A stretch of 64,000 nt of DNA from sequence record PZ495249.1; one strand, 5' to 3'. This DNA is from a phage. Shown piece after piece: positions 1 through 35,767 of the stretch; the first letter of the stretch is position 1, and every line of letters starts with the position of its first letter. The notes under the pieces were generated by a model. The model did not search any database. It worked only from the letters and a program-made list of their open reading frames with translations, and had not been told where the DNA came from. A program made the position numbers and the translations under genes.

Positions 1-33
1 TGGGCGCAATGTCTAATAGTTATTTCCTATCAA

Positions 34-219
34 TTAAATATGATTGATAGCCACTACCTGATCAGGCTTAACACGGTTTTTTAGATTGTCAATCAAAATC
101 TCACCGTTATCAATCCCCAGGATCACGCCATTAACCATAAAGCCCCATTGATCACGATAACGCGCTTTTAAGCGCCCTCCGCGCTGTTCTATGGCCTTTT
201 CTATTTGTTCCAATGTCAT
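34..219 (-). CDS. hypothetical early protein (61 aa)
   Basis: track ORF; GGAGG upstream of ATG; part of leftward small-gene array. Confidence 0.55.
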   Translation of the reverse strand: MTLEQIEKAIEQRGGRLKARYRDQWGFMVNGVILGIDNGEILIDNLKNRVKPDQVVAINHI

Positions 220-284
220 TGGATAACCTCCGGTTAAAACTCGTTAGAAAGCGAAAGAGGCGCTATTCTGCGCCCCTTCTCTTA

Positions 285-422
285 TCACTCAATCCAGCCC
301 CGTTTCTCGGTGCGGTCGCGCTTTGTTTTGTTGCGCTTATCCCCTTTGCGGCTGGTATCTTCGTTCCATGCCTTGCGCGGTTTACCGTTACCCATTTTTT
401 CTACGTTGTTGGAACCATTCAT
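285..422 (-). CDS. small Lys/Arg-rich protein (45 aa)
   Basis: hand-called ORF below track cut-off; GAGGG RBS; leader hairpin upstream; frame checked against neighbouring track ORFs. Confidence 0.3.
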   Translation of the reverse strand: MNGSNNVEKMGNGKPRKAWNEDTSRKGDKRNKTKRDRTEKRGWIE

Positions 423-452
423 TTTTAAACCCTCGTTTTATTTTCAATGTTA

Positions 453-469
453 GCGGGAGAAGTTCCCGC
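453..469 (-). promoter_or_regulatory. leader/intercistronic stem-loop GCGGGA-N5-TCCCGC
   Basis: palindrome just upstream of RBS of ORF 285..422. Confidence 0.4.
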
Positions 470-484
470 CGTTGTTGTATCAGC

Positions 485-859
485 TTACGCTACGTTATGA
501 AACTTTGCAACCGCGATCAGTGACCCCGCCAGGTAAAGCCAGTAATTATCCCGCTCGCGGTCAATCGTTGCCTCGCGGCTGGTAGGCTTGAGATAACCCC
601 ACTCAATCAAAAGAGAATCAATCTCATTATAATAGTAAGCGTGGTTAATGTCTGACGGTAAACCCTGCAACCATGAGGCCATCGCTTTTAACACGTTGCC
701 ATTGTAGCGCTGCTGGTTTTCATAATACCAGTATTCAGAATTGAAACGGCGCATCAGTTCTGTAATCTTGCCCTCTTCACTGGTGATTAAGTCCTCTTTA
801 TGATCGTAAAACTCAATTGCTGCCAGGATGTAAGACTTGATTTTTTCTGCTGATTTCAT
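485..859 (-). CDS. hypothetical early protein (124 aa)
   Basis: track ORF; promoter and leader hairpin upstream. Confidence 0.6.
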   Translation of the reverse strand: MKSAEKIKSYILAAIEFYDHKEDLITSEEGKITELMRRFNSEYWYYENQQRYNGNVLKAMASWLQGLPSDINHAYYYNEIDSLLIEWGYLKPTSREATIDRERDNYWLYLAGSLIAVAKFHNVA

Positions 860-882
860 TTTGATAACCTTTTCATTGAGAG

Positions 883-899
883 GGGGAACCGCTCCCCCT
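883..899 (-). promoter_or_regulatory. leader stem-loop GGGGGA-N5-TCCCCC
   Basis: between promoter and start of gene 485..859. Confidence 0.4.
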
Positions 900-907
900 T
901 GAATACT

Positions 908-936
908 AATTTACTTTAAACCGTTTACCGTGTCAA
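908..936 (-). promoter_or_regulatory. sigma70-like promoter TTGACA-N17-TAAATT
   Basis: read on minus strand; upstream of gene 485..859; approximate coordinates. Confidence 0.5.
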
Positions 937-949
937 CCTGTTTTTAAAA

Positions 950-1312
950 TTATTCTTCGCTCTCTTCGGCTTCCAGGTCTGCGATCTCTTCCTCTAAGCT
1001 ATCGCGGCGCTCTTCCAGATCTTCCAGGTCGCTCGTTAACTCCTGATAGGCTGGCACTTCGTCAAGATCCATTGTCCCTTCATAGTCGCTTTTACCGCAA
1101 CGGTACGCCGCCGGATCAAGATTTTTCAGAGCATAGGACGGGCTAAACAATGATCCGCAAACGTCTATGTCTTCGTAGCAGTCATCGAGCATTGCATCAT
1201 ATTCCTCTTCGCTTGCTTCATAAGAGAAGTTGCGGATCTGACGCTCAGTTTCTGCAATATCACGGATCACACTTGCCAGTTCTGCGCGTTTCATTTCGAG
1301 GATAGTAGTCAT
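950..1312 (-). CDS. acidic early protein (120 aa, Glu/Asp-rich C-terminus)
   Basis: track ORF; consensus promoter at about 1380..1408. Confidence 0.6.
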   Translation of the reverse strand: MTTILEMKRAELASVIRDIAETERQIRNFSYEASEEEYDAMLDDCYEDIDVCGSLFSPSYALKNLDPAAYRCGKSDYEGTMDLDEVPAYQELTSDLEDLEERRDSLEEEIADLEAEESEE

Positions 1313-1379
1313 AATATTTTCTCTTCTGTTTAAGCGGGTGCATAATCCTATATTATGCTATTCCCGCCCCTTGATGAAT

Positions 1380-1408
1380 AATTTAATGCTTTTCGGTGAT
1401 GCTGTCAA
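1380..1408 (-). promoter_or_regulatory. sigma70-like promoter TTGACA-N17-TAAATT
   Basis: upstream of gene 950..1312; approximate coordinates. Confidence 0.5.
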
Positions 1409-1421
1409 CTGGTTATTGAAA

Positions 1422-1643
1422 TTATTTTTCTACTACCAATTGATACCAGGATTCAACATTGGTAAACACGATCCGTCCATCGTTACGCTCGGACATAAGC
1501 ATACAAGGCGATAACATACGCTCGGCGGCTTTACATTCAGCATAGACGGCGCTGATCTCACCTGGCTTGCTGTCATCAGCTTGGAAAGTGTCATTGATAA
1601 ACACGTTGCCAGCCACCAGGGAAATAATTGCAAATGTAACCAT
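1422..1643 (-). CDS. small secreted protein, signal-peptide-like N-terminus (73 aa)
   Basis: track ORF 1422..1655 trimmed to internal Met with GAGGT RBS; hydrophobic N-terminus. Confidence 0.5.
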   Translation of the reverse strand: MVTFAIISLVAGNVFINDTFQADDSKPGEISAVYAECKAAERMLSPCMLMSERNDGRIVFTNVESWYQLVVEK

Positions 1644-1644
1644 T

Positions 1645-1839
1645 TTAAACCTCACTATACCATGTTAAAAACTGCTGCTTTTCTGTTTCGGTAATATTGC
1701 GGTCTATACACAATTCACCATCATTGCAAGTGTAATCAAAAGCTAACGAAAGATTTTCAACACTGACAGATTTTTCATCCCACTCTAAAACCTCAGTTAG
1801 TTGGTTGAGTATACGTTGCATTTCGGATAGTGTCAACAT
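1645..1839 (-). CDS. hypothetical early protein (64 aa)
   Basis: track ORF 1645..1884 trimmed to internal Met with GAGGT RBS; longer form would run into the promoter. Confidence 0.5.
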   Translation of the reverse strand: MLTLSEMQRILNQLTEVLEWDEKSVSVENLSLAFDYTCNDGELCIDRNITETEKQQFLTWYSEV

Positions 1840-1883
1840 TTTAACCTCGTTAGATTGTTTGGTTTCTCTCTTCAATGGCTGCA

Positions 1884-1911
1884 TTATCTAACAGCCATTA
1901 CAGAAAGTCAA
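1884..1911 (-). promoter_or_regulatory. sigma70-like promoter TTGACT-N16-GATAAT
   Basis: upstream of gene 1645..1839; approximate coordinates. Confidence 0.45.
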
Positions 1912-2060
1912 CCGATCTCTTCTAATTTTTCTGTTCGCCAGGTATATTTGGTTAGCTTGCTTAACATCGCGCAACCTTCCGCATGAGTTAACGGCGAATC
2001 ATTCATGATCACTTTAACGCCTGTTTTATTGTTGACTACTACAACATTGTACTTTCTCAT
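1908..2060 (-). CDS. small hypothetical protein (50 aa)
   Basis: hand-called ORF; AGGAG 9 nt upstream of ATG; own promoter at about 2097..2124. Confidence 0.3.
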   Translation of the reverse strand: MRKYNVVVVNNKTGVKVIMNDSPLTHAEGCAMLSKLTKYTWRTEKLEEIG

Positions 2061-2096
2061 TGTTCCGGCTCCTGGTTTCTCTTCTCTATAGCGCCC

Positions 2097-2124
2097 ATTA
2101 TAAGGCGCTATAACGAAAAGTCAA
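2097..2124 (-). promoter_or_regulatory. sigma70-like promoter TTGACT-N16-TATAAT
   Basis: upstream of ORF 1908..2060; approximate coordinates. Confidence 0.5.
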
Positions 2125-2126
2125 CT

Positions 2127-2291
2127 TTATTTTTTCAGGCTCAAAGTGCCTTTGTTATCGGCATGAGACAAGCCAGGGAAGATCCAACCGTCTGCGCCTT
2201 TCACTGGTGCTTTAAGCTTCGCGCCTGTATTGGCGCTATTCACTTTACGGGCTACGTTGCGAGCGGCTTCACGGGTAGTCATTGCGATCAT
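2127..2291 (-). CDS. small hypothetical protein (54 aa)
   Basis: track ORF 2127..2348 trimmed to Met preceded by AGAGAGAG RBS; longer form would read through the leader hairpin. Confidence 0.45.
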   Translation of the reverse strand: MIAMTTREAARNVARKVNSANTGAKLKAPVKGADGWIFPGLSHADNKGTLSLKK

Positions 2292-2313
2292 GATGTTTCT
2301 CTCTCTTTGGTGT

Positions 2314-2335
2314 GGCGCGGGAACCATTCCCGCCC
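2314..2335 (-). promoter_or_regulatory. conserved leader stem-loop GGCGCGGGAACCATTCCCGCC
   Basis: between promoter and RBS; same sequence recurs at 3572 and 4492. Confidence 0.5.
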
Positions 2336-2346
2336 CTCTGATAAAC

Positions 2347-2375
2347 AATTTACGCTCTATTTAGTTCACTGTCAA
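2347..2375 (-). promoter_or_regulatory. sigma70-like promoter TTGACA-N17-TAAATT
   Basis: upstream of leader hairpin and gene 2127..2291; approximate coordinates. Confidence 0.5.
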
Positions 2376-2392
2376 GCTAATTTTGCGATAAT

Positions 2393-2506
2393 TTAAAAGC
2401 GGGTTACGATGAAATAGACAAGTGCTATCACCGCCCACGATGGAACCGCCAGGATCAGAGCATTAATAATGCCAGTGGTGAAGCAATTTGCTTTTTTGAT
2501 TAACAT
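2393..2506 (-). CDS. small hydrophobic protein (37 aa)
   Basis: hand-called ORF; single hydrophobic helix; promoter at about 2553..2582. Confidence 0.3.
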   Translation of the reverse strand: MLIKKANCFTTGIINALILAVPSWAVIALVYFIVTRF

Positions 2507-2552
2507 AGTGCATCCTCTTTGGTGTCGGCATCATTGCCGCCCTATGTGATGA

Positions 2553-2582
2553 ATTATGCGCCCCTCCTGGGCGCTTGTCAAT
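2553..2582 (-). promoter_or_regulatory. sigma70-like promoter TTGACA-N18-CATAAT
   Basis: upstream of ORF 2393..2506; approximate coordinates. Confidence 0.45.
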
Positions 2583-2585
2583 CCC

Positions 2586-3134
2586 TTATTTAAAATAATT
2601 TCGTAGGGCTTGCGCTGCCTCTTCCGGTGTCGGATGATACGGCGTGATCGCGTCCTCTTCCAGGACTACCGGATCAAGCTCCGGCTCTTCCTCCGGCGCG
2701 TTCTCTTCCTCCAGGAGTACAGATCCCGCCAGCTTATCGATCTTGCGCTGCGCCTTGTCTGCTTTCACGTCCAGGACTCGCAAGGCGCTACGATAAAGGC
2801 TCTCAGGCATCTTTCCCGCCTCATATGCTTTTGTAAGCGCTGCCACCTTGCCAGGGTACTCTAACAGCGTTTTAAACGCCGGATCTACCATCAGCAGGGG
2901 ATCGCCTTTCGCGTCATCTGCCGGATCTGCCGCCCCTGCAATGTCTGCCTGTCCATTTGGTAGCCAGCCTGGAACCGTGGCGCGGATCGCCGTGTTCCCG
3001 TTGTTACGCGCTACGCGCTGCCCCACTTGCTCGCCACTGTAGCCGCTTGCGTCATCCAGGAGATCAGGCGGGATCACCCTCCAATCATCCTCGTCATGCT
3101 TAACCCACGATTGAATAACATGCTCACGCCCCAT
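2586..3134 (-). CDS. hypothetical early protein (182 aa)
   Basis: track ORF; GAGGGG upstream of ATG. Confidence 0.6.
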   Translation of the reverse strand: MGREHVIQSWVKHDEDDWRVIPPDLLDDASGYSGEQVGQRVARNNGNTAIRATVPGWLPNGQADIAGAADPADDAKGDPLLMVDPAFKTLLEYPGKVAALTKAYEAGKMPESLYRSALRVLDVKADKAQRKIDKLAGSVLLEEENAPEEEPELDPVVLEEDAITPYHPTPEEAAQALRNYFK

Positions 3135-3137
3135 AGG

Positions 3138-3398
3138 TTAACCCCTCGTTACTAACTCACATACACGGTAAAGGCTCCCCGCATCTTTTGAAGGTAGCCA
3201 CCCGATCCGATACTTCCCGATCTCAACCTTCGTAACGTCCTTTACTTCGGCGTTACGGTGATTAAAGATAGTGTAACCGCCCCCACTCCGCTTGTAAACG
3301 TTTTCTTTAAACGTCATTGCATATCGTGCGAGATCATAGGCTGTTGAATCCATAAAGGCGATAACCTCGCCTTTACAGTTTAGAAACAATGGTTTCAT
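3138..3398 (-). CDS. hypothetical early protein (86 aa)
   Basis: track ORF; GGGGGAA upstream of ATG. Confidence 0.55.
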   Translation of the reverse strand: MKPLFLNCKGEVIAFMDSTAYDLARYAMTFKENVYKRSGGGYTIFNHRNAEVKDVTKVEIGKYRIGWLPSKDAGSLYRVCELVTRG

Positions 3399-3405
3399 TA
3401 CGTTA

Positions 3406-3552
3406 TTATTTCCCCCATCTGGTAAACCCCGCGCCCTGATTAGATTTTAACTCACGTTTCAAACGGGCGCAACGGCTCGCGATAGCGAAACGGGAGGGAG
3501 TTACAACGGTTGATCCGGTGTTGGTGTGGATTTTCATTACACGTTGTTTCAT
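3406..3552 (-). CDS. small basic protein (48 aa)
   Basis: hand-called ORF just downstream of promoter and leader hairpin; stop abuts start of next gene. Confidence 0.3.
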   Translation of the reverse strand: MKQRVMKIHTNTGSTVVTPSRFAIASRCARLKRELKSNQGAGFTRWGK

Positions 3553-3571
3553 AATCTTTCACCTTTGAGGA

Positions 3572-3593
3572 GGCGCGGGAACCATTCCCGCCC
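3572..3593 (-). promoter_or_regulatory. conserved leader stem-loop GGCGCGGGAACCATTCCCGCC
   Basis: between promoter 3603..3631 and ORF 3406..3552. Confidence 0.5.
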
Positions 3594-3602
3594 TTTGAGA
3601 TA

Positions 3603-3631
3603 ATATTAGCCCCATTCCTGGGACTTGGCAA
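3603..3631 (-). promoter_or_regulatory. sigma70-like promoter TTGCCA-N17-TAATAT
   Basis: upstream of leader hairpin 3572..3593; approximate coordinates. Confidence 0.45.
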
Positions 3632-3871
3632 CTATCTTACCGTAATTTTTTCACCTTTTACGATAATGTAAGTATGGCCTGAATTACTGTATTGATCGAC
3701 ATAGACACGGCGATCACGCCCCTGGAAATTAATTTTCCATTGAGTAGGTATTTTTGTACCATAGCCGGATCGTGTCTTAGAAAGTCCCGCCGTTTGCCAC
3801 CACAAAGGCGCTTCAATCGTCTCTACTTCCGCTAACAGTGAACCATCTTTTGCAATCAATAAAGTTTCCAT
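3632..3871 (-). CDS. hypothetical early protein (79 aa)
   Basis: track ORF 3632..3934 trimmed to internal Met with GAGAG..AAGAAG RBS; hairpin 3905..3924 lies upstream. Confidence 0.5.
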   Translation of the reverse strand: METLLIAKDGSLLAEVETIEAPLWWQTAGLSKTRSGYGTKIPTQWKINFQGRDRRVYVDQYSNSGHTYIIVKGEKITVR

Positions 3872-3904
3872 CTTCTTACTCTCTTCTGTTGGTGTAGGGG
3901 AATG

Positions 3905-3924
3905 ATAGCCCCTTTCGGGGCTAT
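3905..3924 (-). promoter_or_regulatory. intercistronic hairpin ATAGCCCC-TTTC-GGGGCTAT
   Basis: 8-bp GC-rich stem right after stop of gene 3938..4471; no clear U-run. Confidence 0.4.
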
Positions 3925-3937
3925 GGTCAAGCACTAT

Positions 3938-4471
3938 TTAGACGTTTTCAACAATACTTTTCAAGACGTCTACACCTTCCAGGAGATCACGCGCTGCACT
4001 GATCGCGGCTTCAATTGCATCCTCTTCGCCGCCGTGTTCTTTCCAGATCTCTTCTGCCGTGTCTAAGAGTGATCCTTCATCATCGTAGGAATAATCAAAA
4101 CCGCAACATACTACTTCACCGTCTAACAGGGTATGAGATCCGGCGGTAGCGTCAACCGTGAAATAGTAGTCATTGGCGGTAATGTCACGCGCTAATTGAC
4201 GCTGTAAACTTTCGTAAGCTTCACGGGACGGGTTAGCACGTCCTGCTTTCGCATAGTCTGCCGTGAGTTCTGCCAGCGTATACTGCTGAGGGATAGCATA
4301 TTTAAAGCTATTGCGATCTGCATCAGGGTTAGTAATAGTTACGCCGCCCTCGTGCGTGTCTGTCATTTTCCACTGATCCCCGAACTGGTCAAACGTGTAA
4401 GCACATACAACGTTAACAGTGAAATCAATGTTGTTACGGGAAAAGTTGAAAGTTTCAATGATATCAGACAT
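3938..4471 (-). CDS. hypothetical early protein (177 aa)
   Basis: track ORF; consensus promoter TTGACA-N16-TATAAT and leader hairpin upstream. Confidence 0.6.
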   Translation of the reverse strand: MSDIIETFNFSRNNIDFTVNVVCAYTFDQFGDQWKMTDTHEGGVTITNPDADRNSFKYAIPQQYTLAELTADYAKAGRANPSREAYESLQRQLARDITANDYYFTVDATAGSHTLLDGEVVCCGFDYSYDDEGSLLDTAEEIWKEHGGEEDAIEAAISAARDLLEGVDVLKSIVENV

Positions 4472-4491
4472 TTGGTTATCTCTCTTTAATT

Positions 4492-4512
4492 TGGCGCGGG
4501 AAACATTCCCGC
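4492..4512 (-). promoter_or_regulatory. conserved leader stem-loop GGCGCGGGAAACATTCCCGCC
   Basis: between consensus promoter and RBS of gene 3938..4471; no U-run, so not a terminator. Confidence 0.5.
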
Positions 4513-4525
4513 CGCCTATGAAGTG

Positions 4526-4553
4526 AATTATACGTTACTGGGTGAATCTGTCA
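4526..4553 (-). promoter_or_regulatory. sigma70 consensus promoter TTGACA-N16-TATAAT
   Basis: perfect -35 and -10 hexamers; upstream of leader hairpin and gene 3938..4471. Confidence 0.6.
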
Positions 4554-4562
4554 AGCGTTTAT

Positions 4563-4766
4563 TTACTCAATATCTAAAACTTTTTTCAGGCGGTTGATCT
4601 TCGCTTCGCGTTGCTCATGAGTGATCACGCACATTTCAACCAATGAATCAAGGAAAGCGGATACAATGCAATAGCCGTTAAAATCGTTTTCCTCTTCTTT
4701 CTCACAAAAGCCGTTCACGATCACTTTGATTGATTCAGTCGTCACTACTACATGTAATGTTGCCAT
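4563..4766 (-). CDS. hypothetical early protein (67 aa)
   Basis: track ORF; AGGAAG RBS; promoter at about 4818..4846. Confidence 0.5.
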   Translation of the reverse strand: MATLHVVVTTESIKVIVNGFCEKEEENDFNGYCIVSAFLDSLVEMCVITHEQREAKINRLKKVLDIE

Positions 4767-4817
4767 TTTCTTTTCTTCCTGTTATGCGGTGCGCCTCTCG
4801 CCTCGCCTTGTGTAGTA

Positions 4818-4846
4818 ATATTAGATCGCCGCCCCTATGCTGTCAA
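4818..4846 (-). promoter_or_regulatory. sigma70-like promoter TTGACA-N17-TAATAT
   Basis: upstream of gene 4563..4766; approximate coordinates. Confidence 0.5.
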
Positions 4847-4887
4847 CTACTACCATAAAATTTTTTATATATATTTCCCTGGTGCTT

Positions 4888-5067
4888 GAAAAATAAAAAA
4901 TTTTTTCACCTGGGAGTTCCCACAAAATTTTTTCGATTAGGTGGATCTCGTTTCGGAAATTTTCCTCTTACGTAAAACTCGTTACAAAAATTTTTCGACC
5001 TGGTAAAATCCGTTGGCGGAAAAAATTGAGATCCTAAAACTCAAATCAGCAAAAAATTTTCCTTGCG
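4888..5067. repeat. phased A-tract/T-tract array (AAAA(A)TTTT(T)C about every 30-35 bp, six copies)
   Basis: direct reading of the sequence; candidate intrinsically bent DNA. Confidence 0.5.
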
Positions 5068-5133
5068 CTTTCCTTGGTGTGGTGTATAGTGGTTATCAAG
5101 CCGCCACGGTGGAGGCACAAAGAGGAAATAACC

Positions 5134-5244
5134 ATGAAAGTTTACAGTGTATATGATGACGAAATTTGCAACCATTGCTATCACCCTAAGCGCTTAAAGT
5201 GGTGTTTTATCTGTAAGCAAGAGATGCAAAAACAGGGTAAATAG
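5134..5244 (+). CDS. micro-ORF with CxxC..CxxC zinc-ribbon pattern (36 aa)
   Basis: hand-called ORF; AGAGGA RBS; lone rightward ORF inside the non-coding control region. Confidence 0.3.
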   Translation: MKVYSVYDDEICNHCYHPKRLKWCFICKQEMQKQGK

Positions 5245-5246
5245 TG

Positions 5247-5276
5247 TTGACACGCCCCAGGGAACGGGGCTATAAT
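5247..5276 (+). promoter_or_regulatory. sigma70 consensus promoter TTGACA-N18-TATAAT (rightward)
   Basis: perfect hexamers; no obvious CDS downstream; fires into the repeat region. Confidence 0.5.
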
Positions 5277-5494
5277 CACCACATACAGAAGAGGACACGC
5301 CACCCCACGGCGTAAAGGCGGGGCTAACATACCAGGGCGCTGGTTGCAAGGTGGATCGCCGGTAGCTCGCCTCAAAAAAGTTTTGTAAAGATTGAATAAA
5401 GTGCTTGCGTCCTGGGTTGGTTGTGTTATTATGTATACATGGACAGGGGAACGGGGCTGGCGAGACAATCACCGGAGCTGCCCGTCATTCTGGA

Positions 5495-5595
5495 AATGCG
5501 AATGAGTCTCTTTTCGGTTTGTAGATGAGAATGATTCTCATTCAACTTTATAAACGAGAATGATTATCACTTGCAAATGAGAATGCTTATCATAC
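5495..5595. repeat. four operator-like near-palindromes GAGAATG(A/C)TT(C/A)TCA
   Basis: four spaced copies of an imperfect inverted repeat in about 100 bp. Confidence 0.5.
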
Positions 5596-5613
5596 TCATC
5601 CGGCAAATTTTCG

Positions 5614-5820
5614 AGAATTTTAAATTTTGCTTTTGGAAAAATGCAGATCGAAAAGTTAAAAAACTTTTAATAATTGGGGAATTTTTTGAAAATTTTAAAT
5701 TTTGGTTTTGGATTTTTCTGTGGTAAGATGCAGAAAAGTTTTAAATAATTCAGGGAAATTTTAAATTTTGCTTTTCAATATTTATTGAGCAACCTGGAGA
5801 AAAGTTTTAAATAGTTTGAG
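5614..5820. repeat. three tandem AT-rich direct repeats of about 70 bp
   Basis: GARAATTTTAAATTTTGSTTTTGG plus CAGAAAAGTTTTAAATA recur three times in the same order. Confidence 0.55.
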
Positions 5821-6049
5821 AGTGATTTTCAAAGTTTGTTTCCATATTGTTCGGACTGAGATGGAAATAGATTATCAAGTTATTACAACAACTTACAAGA
5901 TTGCTTAGAGTTTGATTTAAATATGGTGTTAAGAAGTTCAAACTGTGTCTATGAATTTACTGGTATGTTGGAGGTGAGGCTCCGAAATATTGAACCCCAC
6001 ACCCCTTATTCTAAAAACGAAAATTTTTAAAATATCAGATAATATCAGG

Positions 6050-6667
6050 TTAGCCTAACATCGGCAAGAAAAGTCGGTCGCCACTTAGAATTAGTTCTCT
6101 TTGAATTAATCCATAGATGACAAACCCGTGACCACACTTCTTATCCTCAGCATGAATCACATCGTAATAATCCATACCTAACTCCTGGTAGTGATAACCG
6201 TCGAAGTCTAACAGTGCAATTTTCTCACCATCATTAACCCGTTTCCATAAGTCTTTGAATGTATCTGTTTGCACCACTGCACGGGCGTACATTGGGAAGT
6301 ACAGGTTTCGACGGGCAGTGATGTAATCCAGTTTCTTGCCATCCCAGACACTATACAGAGGCTTTCTGCCTTTACCCATAGGGTAGCGTTCTGCTCTCCA
6401 GTTAGCCCAACCTGCTCGCGCCCATGTGTAATACGCTTCGGTTGGATCACCGTTCTCATCTACGTGCTCTTCGTACACTTTACTAAATTGCCAGGCGTTC
6501 TCCATATTCTTGGCTACAATGCCACCATACATAGGTATATCGCGCAGGTAGAACGGGCTAAGCTGCTGTCCGTATCCTTCTTTATCACGGCTGGTAGTGT
6601 TGACCACCTTAAACCCTTCCGGTACTTTGTCCCGCATACCAACCACGATTAGATTATCAAACTTCAT
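6050..6667 (-). CDS. hypothetical protein (205 aa)
   Basis: track ORF 6050..6739 trimmed to internal Met with GGAG-N6-ATG. Confidence 0.6.
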   Translation of the reverse strand: MKFDNLIVVGMRDKVPEGFKVVNTTSRDKEGYGQQLSPFYLRDIPMYGGIVAKNMENAWQFSKVYEEHVDENGDPTEAYYTWARAGWANWRAERYPMGKGRKPLYSVWDGKKLDYITARRNLYFPMYARAVVQTDTFKDLWKRVNDGEKIALLDFDGYHYQELGMDYYDVIHAEDKKCGHGFVIYGLIQRELILSGDRLFLPMLG

Positions 6668-6881
6668 TCTTATCTCCGTAGTTGTCGTGGTAGTATTGGA
6701 TGGCTTCTTCGAGATCCATTCCGCACATACCTGTTTCATTGATACTCACGGTGTATTTATTCTGATACCGTTGGATAACATTCCCTTCCTCGTCATGGCG
6801 AGTCCACCAACCTCCACCTGGGAGGATAGTAACCACATTGTTAAGGATAAAATCAAACATCTGTTCTTTAGTCAGTTTCAT
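6657..6881 (-). CDS. hypothetical protein (74 aa)
   Basis: track ORF 6657..6914 trimmed to Met with GGAGAAA RBS. Confidence 0.45.
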   Translation of the reverse strand: MKLTKEQMFDFILNNVVTILPGGGWWTRHDEEGNVIQRYQNKYTVSINETGMCGMDLEEAIQYYHDNYGDKNEV

Positions 6882-7098
6882 CAGGTTTCTCCGTAATCTC
6901 TTCGATAAAGGCAATCAGTGCTTGCCCTGCTTCATCAGCATTCTTGAGAGAGCGTTCGTAATTACTTGTCACTAAATCACGGCTTGCAGGATCAATCTGT
7001 GTGGGACGTAAATGATCCCACAGTGCCACCTGCCCTTCGTAGACACAGCAATTTTCAATCAGTGCTAATAGTTTCTGTTTTTCTGCTTGCGTAATCAT
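6868..7098 (-). CDS. hypothetical protein (76 aa)
   Basis: track ORF 6868..7143 trimmed to Met with GGAGGA RBS just after hairpin 7107..7134. Confidence 0.45.
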   Translation of the reverse strand: MITQAEKQKLLALIENCCVYEGQVALWDHLRPTQIDPASRDLVTSNYERSLKNADEAGQALIAFIEEITEKPDETD

Positions 7099-7106
7099 AA
7101 TTCCTC

Positions 7107-7134
7107 CACATGAAGAAAGCCCCTTTCGGGGCTT
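7107..7134 (-). terminator. rho-independent terminator
   Basis: AGCCCC-TTTC-GGGGCT stem followed by U-rich run on minus strand; after ATPase gene. Confidence 0.5.
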
Positions 7135-7139
7135 AGTTA

Positions 7140-8264
7140 TCACATAATCAGTGACAGGTTTGCACTTCGCGTTGTGCTTGGTTCCAGTACCACACGGAAG
7201 CTGTCGCCTGGTTCATCGCTGTACACCACCAGTTTACCACCTGCAATCAGGTCTGTCTTCCACTTCGTGGCGTTCAGGTGAATGCGTGGATCACCTTCAT
7301 CATCAATGATGACTGCGGAACATTCTTCGAATGCTTCCTGATTGTCCTGCGTTGCCGGACGCAGATAAACATCGAGGGTTTTGATGCCACTCAGGAATGA
7401 CATTGGATTGAATCCATGCCAGTTGCTAACCCAGTTCACTTCTGCCAGTTTACCGTTCACGGTGATATTGCTGATATCCCACTTGGCTTCGCCGCCCAGG
7501 GAAATACCCATCATATCCAGACACGCTTTGAAGGTCATGTCTTTGTAGAAGTTAAGCTCTTCCACGATGCCTTGAATCACATCGAAGGAGAGTTCCAAAC
7601 TCACATCCCACAGACGCTGGAAGCTTGCCTGATGCTCTTTATCATCGAGATTCTTATCCAGATAATCGAGCATTGTCTCCAGGGAGATCTTATCATAGTT
7701 GAAGCTGTAGAAGATACGGCTCGGACGGTTGATAAAGAACTCGGAGATGAAGCCGCTATTCTTGGTCAGAATAAACAGCTTGTTACCACTGCCTGTACCA
7801 TCCAAAAGCGTTAACAGCGCTTCCTGATCCTGTTTCTTCTCGTACACTTTGTCAAACTCATCGAAGATGACAATTGCTTTCTCTGCAATCTTGCTCATCA
7901 GTTCAATGAAATTGGCATCGCTATACGCTTGCGTTACCATAATAACTGGTAAACCCTCTGCTGCCAGTTTACGGCTAATCACCTTAGCCAGCATGGTTTT
8001 ACCGCTACCCTTTGTGCCGGATAAGAGAACACCTGTGTTCTTGCCCTGCTCCGCACGACGCTTGTAGGTAGAGATGATGTGCGATGCACGTTTCTCTGTT
8101 TCACCATACAGGACGCTTGGTACTCCTGTCAAATCCCCACGACTAAGGAAGTAGTTACCCAGTGGATCACGGCTCACTGTCCAGAAACCAGCAGGGAGAG
8201 TTTCGCTCTTGACACCTGCCTCTTTGTCCACTACTGCGATATCACCATAAATTGTGTATGACAC
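7140..8264 (-). CDS. P-loop ATPase (AAA-like), paralog of 24796..25956
   Basis: Walker A GTKGSGKT and Walker B IVIFDEFD; long blocks conserved with the 24796 gene product. Confidence 0.75.
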   Translation of the reverse strand: MSYTIYGDIAVVDKEAGVKSETLPAGFWTVSRDPLGNYFLSRGDLTGVPSVLYGETEKRASHIISTYKRRAEQGKNTGVLLSGTKGSGKTMLAKVISRKLAAEGLPVIMVTQAYSDANFIELMSKIAEKAIVIFDEFDKVYEKKQDQEALLTLLDGTGSGNKLFILTKNSGFISEFFINRPSRIFYSFNYDKISLETMLDYLDKNLDDKEHQASFQRLWDVSLELSFDVIQGIVEELNFYKDMTFKACLDMMGISLGGEAKWDISNITVNGKLAEVNWVSNWHGFNPMSFLSGIKTLDVYLRPATQDNQEAFEECSAVIIDDEGDPRIHLNATKWKTDLIAGGKLVVYSDEPGDSFRVVLEPSTTRSANLSLIM

Positions 8265-31870: not shown

Positions 31871-31939
31871 GGTTGACTTTTGCTTAGAGGGATAATAAAG
31901 TCCCTCTCGTCAAGAGAAACCAATAACAAAGGAGAGAAC

Positions 31940-35059: not shown

Positions 35060-35164
35060 AAATAGTTGTTGACTTACCCGAAGAAATACGTAGAATAGAT
35101 TACATCAAAGGGGAAGAGCGGTTCTTCCCCCCAGTAAATGAAAACAGAAAGAAGGAGAACATAC

Positions 35165-35767
35165 ATGTCTGAGAAAATTTCCCTGAAAAAAGGTTCCACC
35201 GAAAAGATCTCCCTGAAAAAGATCGCACCTCTGCTGAAAGAGATTCGTCTGGAATTCTCCTGGAAATCATCCACTAAACTGGATCTGGACGTAAGCGCAC
35301 TGGTGTGCCGTCATAATGCCTCTGGTAATCCAGAAATGCTGTCTGCCCGTCACCTGGTTTGCTATGCAAACAAAGTTGATCCAGAGCGTTCAACCTTCGC
35401 TGGCGAAGATGTTCGTGATGGTACTGGCAACCTGGAGCAGATCGATGTTACTCTGAGTAAAATCTCCCAGAATGCAGATGAAATTGCATTCGTGATCACC
35501 ATCGACGATGAAACTGGTCAGAAGCGCCTCGGTCATGCCTCCGAAGGTATGCTGAAAATCTTCGACGCAGAACGTAACGTCGAGATCCTGGACTTTGACT
35601 TCCTTGCACCGGAAGTTGCTGGTAACACCATCTGTCACGTAGCTTCGCTGGTTCGCGAAGATGGCGAATGGAAACTGAAAGCCTACGGTGTTGGTAAAGC
35701 AGGTATGGATATCTGTGATGTGGTGGTAGCATTCGGTGGTGACGTCAACTGGTTTGACTGCCCGTAA
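35165..35767 (+). CDS. terD: TerD-domain protein
   Basis: track ORF 35138..35767 trimmed to Met with AGAAGGAGAA RBS; TerD pattern ISLKKG..LDLDVSAL..GEDVRDGTG..EWKLKAYGVG. Confidence 0.8.
   Translation: MSEKISLKKGSTEKISLKKIAPLLKEIRLEFSWKSSTKLDLDVSALVCRHNASGNPEMLSARHLVCYANKVDPERSTFAGEDVRDGTGNLEQIDVTLSKISQNADEIAFVITIDDETGQKRLGHASEGMLKIFDAERNVEILDFDFLAPEVAGNTICHVASLVREDGEWKLKAYGVGKAGMDICDVVVAFGGDVNWFDCP

Follow-up and report, generated by a model that had tools for sequence, protein, structure and literature searches.

The window analysed in this study is a 64,000-nucleotide (nt) stretch of phage DNA (PZ495249.1), and the cluster studied within it (positions 1–4860) carries short GC-rich hairpins in the leaders of its genes. 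The cluster contains ~15 small genes encoding proteins of 37–182 amino acids (aa), with 12 cassettes before them in 4.9 kb. All plausible genes are located on the minus strand, and the hairpin element is therefore read as the reverse complement of the window sequence (e.g. ...TATAATtcacttcataGGCGGCGGGAATGTTTCCCGCGCCaaattaaagagagataaccaaATG). Cassettes of the type "promoter + stem-loop + ribosome-binding site (RBS)" precede almost every small gene of this variable early cluster, which belongs to a myovirus of the Stephanstirmvirinae (phAPEC8/phi92-like). Sigma70-like promoters with 9–12 of 12 matching positions were found at 12 sites on the minus strand of the cluster; 11 of them are in short spacers before small genes, and the promoter-like site at 3298, inside a coding region, is the only exception. 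Across the cluster, 25 promoter matches were observed against 11.1 expected. The −35 boxes, as read by eye, are mostly preceded by TAA-containing A/T-rich decamers (aaataaacgc, aaaaaataaag, ttttaaaaacagg), except at 1911. Ten cluster proteins searched against Pfam showed no family above the curated cut-off and two weak sub-threshold matches, and the PHROGs of the cluster proteins are function-unknown only. A tRNA scan of the window found none, and an Rfam scan of 1–8000 with E values up to 1 gave no covariance-model match.

The motif GGCGCGGGAAnCATTCCCGCC occurs at 2314–2334, 3572–3592, and 4493–4513 (three copies in the window with up to 3 mismatches). Shuffled sequences contain 0.01 copies on average, and none of 100 shuffles reached three. 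A covariance model built from the family recovered these three copies, all in minus-strand orientation, with 32–36 bits (E ~1e-5 to 1e-6), scored weakly on 449–473 (14 bits), and gave no match at site 883. A first-pass annotation made from the sequence had counted at least five copies or close variants of one stem-loop, at about 453, 883, 2314, 3572, and 4492. The copies at 2314, 3572, and 4493 do recur beyond chance. At 453, where the covariance model is weak, and at 883, which it misses, the sequence is no close variant of GGCGCGGGAAnCATTCCCGCC; each of these sites has a GC-rich hairpin of its own (GCGGGAacuucUCCCGC and GGGGGAgcgguUCCCCC, respectively) in the equivalent leader position. Further members that had been overlooked are located at 2521–2542 (CGGCAaugaUGCCG, diverged), at 1332–1369, at 4786–4806 (weak), and on the plus strand at 35110–35130. 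Folding of the leaders, which had been suggested as a check, gave stable hairpins with predicted energies of −9.6 to −16.8 kcal/mol and single-site z-scores of −1.2 to −4.8. The stems have 5–11 pairs (14 in the nested 1332–1369 copy), and the RBS (AAAGAGAG or AAAGG) is unpaired in all minimum free energy and centroid folds.

The window is ~80–84% identical, in patches, to the Klebsiella phages KP2025, KP13-26, FKP3, phi1_175008, and FBKp34, and the Escherichia coli phage phAPEC8 is a more distant relative. The subfamily of these relatives, where recorded, is Stephanstirmvirinae, and KP2025 is filed only as Caudoviricetes. The relatives were examined over ~58 kb of phAPEC8 and 5–9 kb of the others. 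A loose promoter and fold filter gave ~200 mostly spurious sites, and a stricter filter was used instead; 37 cassettes with a promoter and a leader hairpin were collected from the window and the six relatives (7 phages). The 5′ edge of the stem is located 9.7 ± 1.1 nt past the −10 hexamer (range 7–13), at 9 or 10 nt in 27 of the 37 cassettes. Position 7 after the −10 hexamer is C in 30/37 and position 8 is A in 30/37. Since the start sites used by E. coli RNA polymerase usually have C-A at −1/+1 and at such a distance, the transcript probably starts at the conserved A, 8 nt past the −10 hexamer, which would place the beginning of the hairpin at about +2 to +4 of the RNA. In agreement with the first-pass annotation, which had put the hairpins between a promoter or upstream stop and the next RBS, all hairpins of the cluster have a sigma70-like promoter upstream and the next RBS and ATG downstream on the minus (coding) strand, and a shared structure in the 5′ leaders of early-type transcripts made by host RNA polymerase was borne out. 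That annotation had missed that the hairpin is rigidly coupled to the promoter as one cassette, that sister cassettes carry the hairpin elsewhere, and that the repeats are recombination break-points between related phages, a hallmark of the T4-like cassettes discussed below.

The individual cassettes of the cluster, all on the minus strand, illustrate this architecture. The hairpin GGCGGCGGGAAuguUUCCCGCGCC (4493–4516; ΔG −16.6, z −3.8), upstream of the gene for a 177-aa protein (ATG at 4471), begins 10 nt past the −10 box of a consensus sigma70 promoter, TTGACA-16-TATAAT (4527–4554; 12/12). Upstream of the 48-aa gene (ATG at 3552), the hairpin AGGGCGGGAAuggUUCCCGCGCCU (3571–3594) follows the promoter TTGCCA-17-TAATAT (3603–3631), whose spacer holds a second GC hairpin (3608–3625) that was also flagged as terminator-like. 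The 54-aa gene (ATG at 2291) is preceded by the hairpin GGGGCGGGAAuggUUCCCGCGCC (2314–2336; ΔG −16.8, z −3.2) and the promoter TTGACA-17-TAAATT (2347–2375). The diverged hairpin GGGCGGCAaugaUGCCGACACC (2521–2542), upstream of the 37-aa gene (ATG at 2506), is kept in KP2025, KP13-26, and FKP3; it lies after the promoter TTGACA-17-CATAAT (2553–2581), which has a spacer hairpin, GCGCCCaggaGGGGCGC, at 2558–2574. The 120-aa gene (ATG at 1312) has the leader hairpin GGGCGGG...CCCGC (1332–1369; ΔG −16.5, z −4.8) after the promoter TTGACA-17-TAAATT (1380–1408). The loop of this hairpin holds a nested AT-rich hairpin, GCATAATataggATTATGC, and the relatives have ~500 bp with two extra genes at that place; the nested hairpin may be a recombination scar.

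The hairpin AGGGGGAgcgguUCCCCCU (881–899), upstream of the 124-aa gene (ATG at 859), has a stem sequence unlike that of the main family; the orthologous slots in the relatives hold hairpins of the GGCGGCGGGA... type, and its promoter is TTGACA-17-TAAATT (908–936). Upstream of the 45-aa gene (ATG at 422), the hairpin GGCGGGAacuucUCCCGCU (452–470; z −2.8) has the KP2025 ortholog GCGGCAgcaaUGCCGC, which shows a compensatory change. The corresponding promoter-like site, TTGCAA-17-TAAGCT (482–510; 7/12), is weak, overlaps the end of the upstream gene, and has TAAGAT in the relatives. A weak and diverged hairpin is located at 4786–4806 (ΔG −9.6, z −3.3), after the promoter at 4818–4846 and upstream of the 67-aa gene. 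Outside the cluster, a plus-strand cassette (35069–35130) consists of TTGACT-16-TAGAAT followed by the leader hairpin GGGGAAGAgcgguUCUUCCCC (35110–35130), with an ATG at 35166.

In other cassettes the hairpins are in the −35/−10 spacer (3907–3922, 3608–3625, 2558–2574, and that of a plus-strand promoter at 5247) or around the −10 box (2087–2112 and 1874–1899). Specifically, the sister cassette with the promoter TTGACC-17-TATCAT (3902–3930) has the spacer hairpin AGCCCCgaaaGGGGCT (3907–3922) and no leader hairpin. In the cassette with TTGACT-16-TATAAT (2087–2124), the −10 box forms the loop of the hairpin TATAGCGCC/GGCGCTATA (2087–2112), and the relatives have other stems in the same architecture. 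The cassette with TTGACT-17-GATAAT (1874–1911) likewise presents its −10 box as the loop of the hairpin AATGGCTG/CAGCCATT (1874–1899). A plus-strand cassette with the −10 box as a hairpin loop (GAGGGataataaagtCCCTC) was also observed at 31873–31930, outside the dense cluster and before a plus-strand gene.

The design of promoter, hairpin, and RBS is present in all six relatives, among which the gene content differs. In the 58 kb of phAPEC8, the motif is confined to ORFan clusters at both genome ends, and it has the same reading direction on the coding strand in plus- and minus-strand clusters. Absence of the element from related phages was to have spoken against it; instead, it was found across rV5-like phages with compensatory stem changes. 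The stem is GCGGGAA/UUCCCGC in most copies, GCGGCA/UGCCGC in phAPEC8 and in the KP2025 ortholog of 452–470, and GCGGUAA/UUAUCGC in FBKp34; the stems at 881 and 35110 of the window are GGGGGA/UCCCCC and GGGGAAGA/UCUUCCCC, respectively. Compensation was read from individual folds. Two alignments were unsuitable for pair counts and formal covariation statistics: in the covariance-model alignment of all matches, the near-palindromic sites were matched on both strands and the orientations were mixed, and in the MAFFT alignment the 3-nt-loop and 4-nt-loop classes were out of register. G·U pairs number 8 on the sense strand versus 2 on the antisense strand. Of the two folds, that of the sense strand is the more stable one in 16 cases and that of the antisense strand in 4. 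This sense-strand bias of pairing is suggestive only, because the copies are related.

A 56-nt query consisting of the hairpin and leader matched 133 phage records, including those of Vequintavirus (rV5 group), PVP-SE1, Cronobacter phage GAP31, and Serratia phages. The same query also matches the jumbo Escherichia phage SHEFM2K (348 kb) with 84% identity over 44 nt, which hints that the cassette type or the leader is shared beyond the rV5-like group. A scan of IMG/VR with the 17-mer core GCGGGAATNNTTCCCGC hit at least 120 contigs, and the bare core is not diagnostic because these are mostly unrelated and nearly all single-copy.

The public records describe the element in different ways. In the phAPEC8 record (JX561091) the hairpin is labelled "putative promoter determined with PHIRE", in the EdH4 record (MK327930) the same hairpin at 2503–2521 is labelled "putative transcriptional terminator", and in other records it is unannotated. 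Literature searches on PHIRE/PVP-SE1 and on Stephanstirmvirinae stem-loops yielded nothing relevant, the phAPEC8 and PVP-SE1 genome papers being outside their reach. The phAPEC8 "PHIRE promoters" are the same sequence element as that of the window (GTAGGGCGGCAATGGTGCCG / GTAGGGCGGGAATAGTTCCC), and PHIRE chose these 20-mers as the most conserved repeated motif, 20–40 nt upstream of start codons, which speaks for a phage-specific promoter. Such a promoter is nevertheless hardly credible. Nearly every copy is 7–13 nt downstream of a sigma70 −35/−10 pair (weak at 510, 7/12) and overlaps the predicted start, and it is the base-pairing that is conserved and not the sequence. In addition, only host-type and T4-late-like promoters were found in a study on rV5 (PMC3606486). 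Because the phAPEC8 element is downstream of a full sigma70 promoter and shows compensatory pairing, it is regarded as a transcribed hairpin. The phAPEC8 and EdH4 labels both look wrong or incomplete.

Three mechanisms had been proposed for the shared leader structure by the first-pass annotation: RNase III processing, transcript stabilisation, and a translational operator. Only stabilisation fits the anatomy, in which the stem is located ~2–4 nt past the predicted start, and the other two are unlikely. RNase III acts on duplexes of about two helical turns (around 20 bp), and the stems here have just 5–11 bp, or 14 pairs in the nested copy, so an RNase III site was rejected. An operator acting by sequestration of the RBS was rejected as well, with the RBS single-stranded in every fold.

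A plausible course of events begins with host RNA polymerase starting at the conserved A. The RNA would then begin with 1–3 free nucleotides followed by a GC-rich stem-loop of 7–11 bp. A 5′ end that is accessible and monophosphorylated is attacked by RNase E much faster than one that carries a triphosphate or is base-paired, and pyrophosphohydrolase needs unpaired 5′ nucleotides, at least two in the case of the Bacillus subtilis enzyme (PMC3997798). A stem-loop at the 5′ terminus would hinder the 5′-end-dependent decay by RppH and RNase E and give longer-lived early messages, and the leader hairpin may also keep the RBS free. Here, the requirement for unpaired 5′ nucleotides is taken to apply to the E. 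coli pyrophosphohydrolase as well.

In known 5′ stabilisers, which include the ompA and papA leaders and synthetic 5′ hairpins, a hairpin a few nucleotides from the triphosphate 5′ end is followed by an unstructured leader and the RBS, as is the case here (Emory, Bouvet and Belasco, 1992; Bricker and Belasco, 1999; in PMC3997798). Such stem-loops have been found to stabilise mRNA (PMC3997798 and references therein). The geometry that they share with the window is expected to block RppH and the 5′ sensor of RNase E. A further 5′-terminal stabilising stem-loop is that of the T7 gene 10 leader. Unlike in these systems, the 5′ end in the window is a prediction based on the promoter geometry, and the hairpin belongs to a family of many copies with related sequences instead of being a one-off leader. 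For the leader hairpin as a 5′-terminal mRNA stabiliser, taken by itself, we would put the chances at roughly even.

A hairpin shared by many early transcripts could also be a site for a protein. The loop and closing bases are fairly conserved in the orientation of transcription (A-A-U-G/A-G-U in most copies), and the element is common to many early transcripts and conserved across genera. A recognition site of this kind could serve an early-mRNA endoribonuclease, RNase III, an antitermination factor of the nut/boxB type, or a repressor that coordinates the translation of all early transcripts; in T4, for example, the RegB endoribonuclease shuts off early mRNAs. The stem sequences are variable, with compensation, and several loops deviate (GCGGU, ACUUC, and UUG), which argues for structure rather than for a specific sequence. 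Together with the short stems, the free RBS, and the absence of an Rfam family, this makes a protein recognition site quite improbable. The boxB element of lambda nut is likewise a small leader hairpin of early transcripts, bound by a phage regulator. In contrast to lambda nut, the window has no boxA-like sequence beside the hairpins and no GNRA-like pentaloops, the copies are one per promoter and not one per operon, and the stem sequence varies. A nut-type site is unlikely: CGCTCTTA (up to 1 mismatch) is present at chance level and never beside a hairpin, and the loops are UGG, AUGG, UAG, and GCGGU. Most early messages in the rV5-like genera would carry the hairpin, with its fairly conserved and transcription-oriented loop, right at their 5′ end, and we also considered that it is a specific handle for a dedicated factor. 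A phage-encoded endonuclease or RNA-binding protein could in this way set the time at which the whole early regulon is shut off or protected, and the hairpin would double as a recombination site through which accessory genes move between phages along with their control signal. This possibility appears improbable.

The relation of the hairpins to transcription termination requires closer attention. Leader hairpins resemble intrinsic terminators in their GC-rich stem of 7–11 bp and loop of 3–5 nt, and differ from them in lacking a U-tract and in being located after a promoter and immediately before an RBS. Specifically, the 8 nt after the stem contain 0–4 T (mean 1) and 5.6 purines on average in the 37 cassettes, and none of the leader hairpins was called terminator-like on the coding strand in a terminator scan. 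The first-pass annotation was therefore right that there is no U-run on the coding strand and that the hairpin is not a canonical intrinsic terminator. A terminator for the opposite strand was rejected, as there is no plus-strand T-run except weakly at 453–469, where no plus-strand gene converges. In the cluster as a whole, a GC hairpin with T-rich flanks at 255–290 (GGGGCGCagaataGCGCC), after the 45-aa gene, is the sole near-canonical terminator candidate seen; it is terminator-like on the plus strand only and is kept in KP2025.

The hairpin may instead be an attenuator or insulator that pauses or stops RNA polymerase arriving from upstream, so that each cassette is served by its own promoter only and promoter occlusion is avoided. 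The layout of the cluster is consistent with such a role, with promoters packed every 150–600 bp and almost no canonical terminators between them, as is the label in the EdH4 record. Spacer hairpins followed by an A/U-rich −10 box resemble weak terminators (3625–3608), and a stem-loop of phage RB49 placed before lacZ reduced expression to nearly the same extent as the rrnB T1 terminator (PMC2839356). However, the purine-rich tail of the leader hairpins does not fit this function, and their position is fixed to ~1 nt relative to the −10 box and the start across unrelated spacers, which a terminator of upstream RNA does not need. In the cassettes 3631 and 2581, a hairpin is present in the spacer as well as in the leader, which would be redundant if both merely terminated. 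For the leader hairpins, stabilisation is favoured over termination because of the tight start-site coupling, the constant orientation, and the free RBS, and the attenuator is rather unlikely. A hairpin placed in the spacer or around the −10 box lies outside the transcript of its own promoter. Such hairpins are more likely to affect read-through RNA that arrives from upstream, attenuating it or protecting its 3′ end.

The cassettes closely resemble the promoter-early stem-loop (PeSL) cassettes of the T4-like phages RB49/phi1, PST/T4, and nt-1/KVP40 (Arbiol, 2010, PMC2839356; Comeau, 2014, PMC4122927). PeSL cassettes likewise combine a near-consensus sigma70 promoter, an adjacent GC-rich stem-loop, and an RBS before a small gene of unknown function, and many copies are clustered in a variable region among function-unknown genes. 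The PeSL stem-loops are in the spacer, over the −10 box, or downstream of it (PMC2839356, PMC4122927), and the same placements are found in the rV5-like group, with an additional one over the −35 box in EdH4. This overlap of hairpin and −35 box (TGGCCttgacaccaGGGCCA), another of the PeSL subclasses, was observed in the Vequintavirus EdH4 at ~2950–2975, 3570–3595, and 3905–3930, and was not seen in the window. In both groups, close relatives also differ by indels and replacements, and the crossovers are in or beside the stem-loop.

The PeSL literature found concerns T4-like phages only. The host phage here is a Stephanstirmvirinae/rV5-like myovirus and the motif is also present in Vequintavirinae, a difference that is one of taxonomic and not of mechanistic scope. 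The authors of the PeSL studies proposed that the stem-loops attenuate or terminate read-through transcription, which was shown for one RB49 stem-loop (PMC2839356). Unlike the PeSLs, the dominant subclass here is transcribed, fixed at the predicted +2 to +4, and has the consensus (A/G)UAGGGCGG(G/C)AAUGGU..., which suggests a 5′-end function rather than the termination proposed for PeSLs.

Natural recombinants were identified among the relatives. In FKP3, a chimeric cassette combines the promoter half of the MSDII... gene cassette, which extends to the hairpin, with the half of the MKQRV... gene cassette that follows the hairpin; the crossover is inside the shared stretch GCGGGAATGGTTCCCGCGCC, and the 2 intervening genes are absent. 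In FBKp34, an MKQRV-type promoter spacer is joined to an MIAMNTR-type gene leader, and 4 genes are absent. The homology of the window with KP2025, KP13-26, and FKP3 ends at 3591–3598, which is the edge of a hairpin, and an FKP3 homology block ends at 4493. Other homology blocks end at −35 boxes (1912, 2132, and 2375). Similar cassettes precede unrelated genes in different phages. As shown by this comparison, the hairpin has served as a crossover point at which genes were deleted or swapped. The near-identical repeats of 17–24 nt every few hundred bases would provide a foothold for homologous recombination, by which whole gene cassettes could be deleted, inserted, or swapped with their expression signals intact.

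These observations could be extended to a selfish repeat that is kept mainly for recombination, exchange, or gene conversion and has no RNA role. The FKP3 and FBKp34 junctions suit this idea, as do the window copies at 2314 and 3571, which are identical over 22 nt where their orthologs differ, so that copies within a genome are more alike than orthologs in some slots; moreover, the hairpin type can differ between orthologs of one slot, as at 881. For a pure DNA repeat there would be no need of the fixed distance to the −10 box, the constant orientation, the G·U pairs on the sense strand, or the pairing that is kept after divergence, and we regard this explanation as very improbable.

In our joint reading, the hairpin is the stem-loop part of "promoter + stem-loop + RBS" cassettes and acts both as a 5′ mRNA stabiliser and as a recombination module, with a rough probability of 0.6. 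The two roles differ in support. The view of the elements as PeSL-like cassettes mediating cassette exchange is much better supported than the stabilising role because the architecture and the natural chimeras are directly observed. Several points weigh against the joint reading. The z-scores for 3571, 2521, and 881 are −1.2 to −1.6, and these hairpins are not more stable than shuffled sequence; as some individual z-scores are unexceptional, the case rests on recurrence and fixed position and not on single folds. The cassettes 3930, 2124, and 1911 have no leader hairpin, which is therefore not universally required for early expression. The counts for conservation and strand bias are not independent events, because many of the compared cassettes are paralogs or orthologs. 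Both the position at +2 to +4 and the stabilising role are predictions from promoter geometry, and given the terminator activity of the RB49 stem-loop, an attenuator role is conceivable even without a U-tract. Finally, break-points at gene boundaries would also be expected if genes were simply exchanged as units.

The comparison takes the PeSL idea beyond T4-like phages and into the large rV5/phAPEC8/phi92 group, a frequent choice in phage therapy work, and concrete natural recombinants with junctions in the hairpin are now at hand. It also bears on the public records, in which one element is annotated in three contradictory ways, as a phage promoter, as a terminator, or as nothing. The fixed placement at +2 to +4 predicts that the early accessory genes are fitted with a standard 5′ mRNA stabiliser. 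If this is true, strong expression in Enterobacteria could be obtained with the 80-nt cassette as a ready-made module, and the cassette would also mark the places of accessory genes that these phages exchange (for host takeover or anti-defence).

The ~1.2 kb that separate the small-gene cluster from the minus-strand genes beyond it (4860–6050) contain no convincing open reading frame (ORF) and may be an origin or regulatory region. A "non-coding" box is shown on the map in the rV5 paper (PMC3606486). The region contains AT blocks of the AAAAATTTTT type at 4853–5060, three 61-nt repeats with a spacing of 66–75 nt at 5615–5816, and four 23-nt iterons with a spacing of 23–29 nt at 5490–5593. The core of the iterons, GAGAATGATTCTCAT, resembles a Fur box at 13–14 of 19 positions. 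The stretch at 5239–5635 has ~75% identity in more than 100 Phapecoctavirus/Justusliebigvirus genomes and has no Rfam match. The plus-strand interval 5134–5276 holds an ORF of 36 aa with two CxxC pairs (MKVYSVYDDEICNHCYHPKRLKWCFICKQEMQKQGK) and a good RBS and, directly after it, a perfect TTGACA-18-TATAAT, the spacer of which is the GC hairpin CGCCCCAGGGAACGGGGC; this plus-strand promoter at 5247 is directed into the conserved non-coding stretch, where a diverged copy of the promoter and hairpin is located at 5432–5458.

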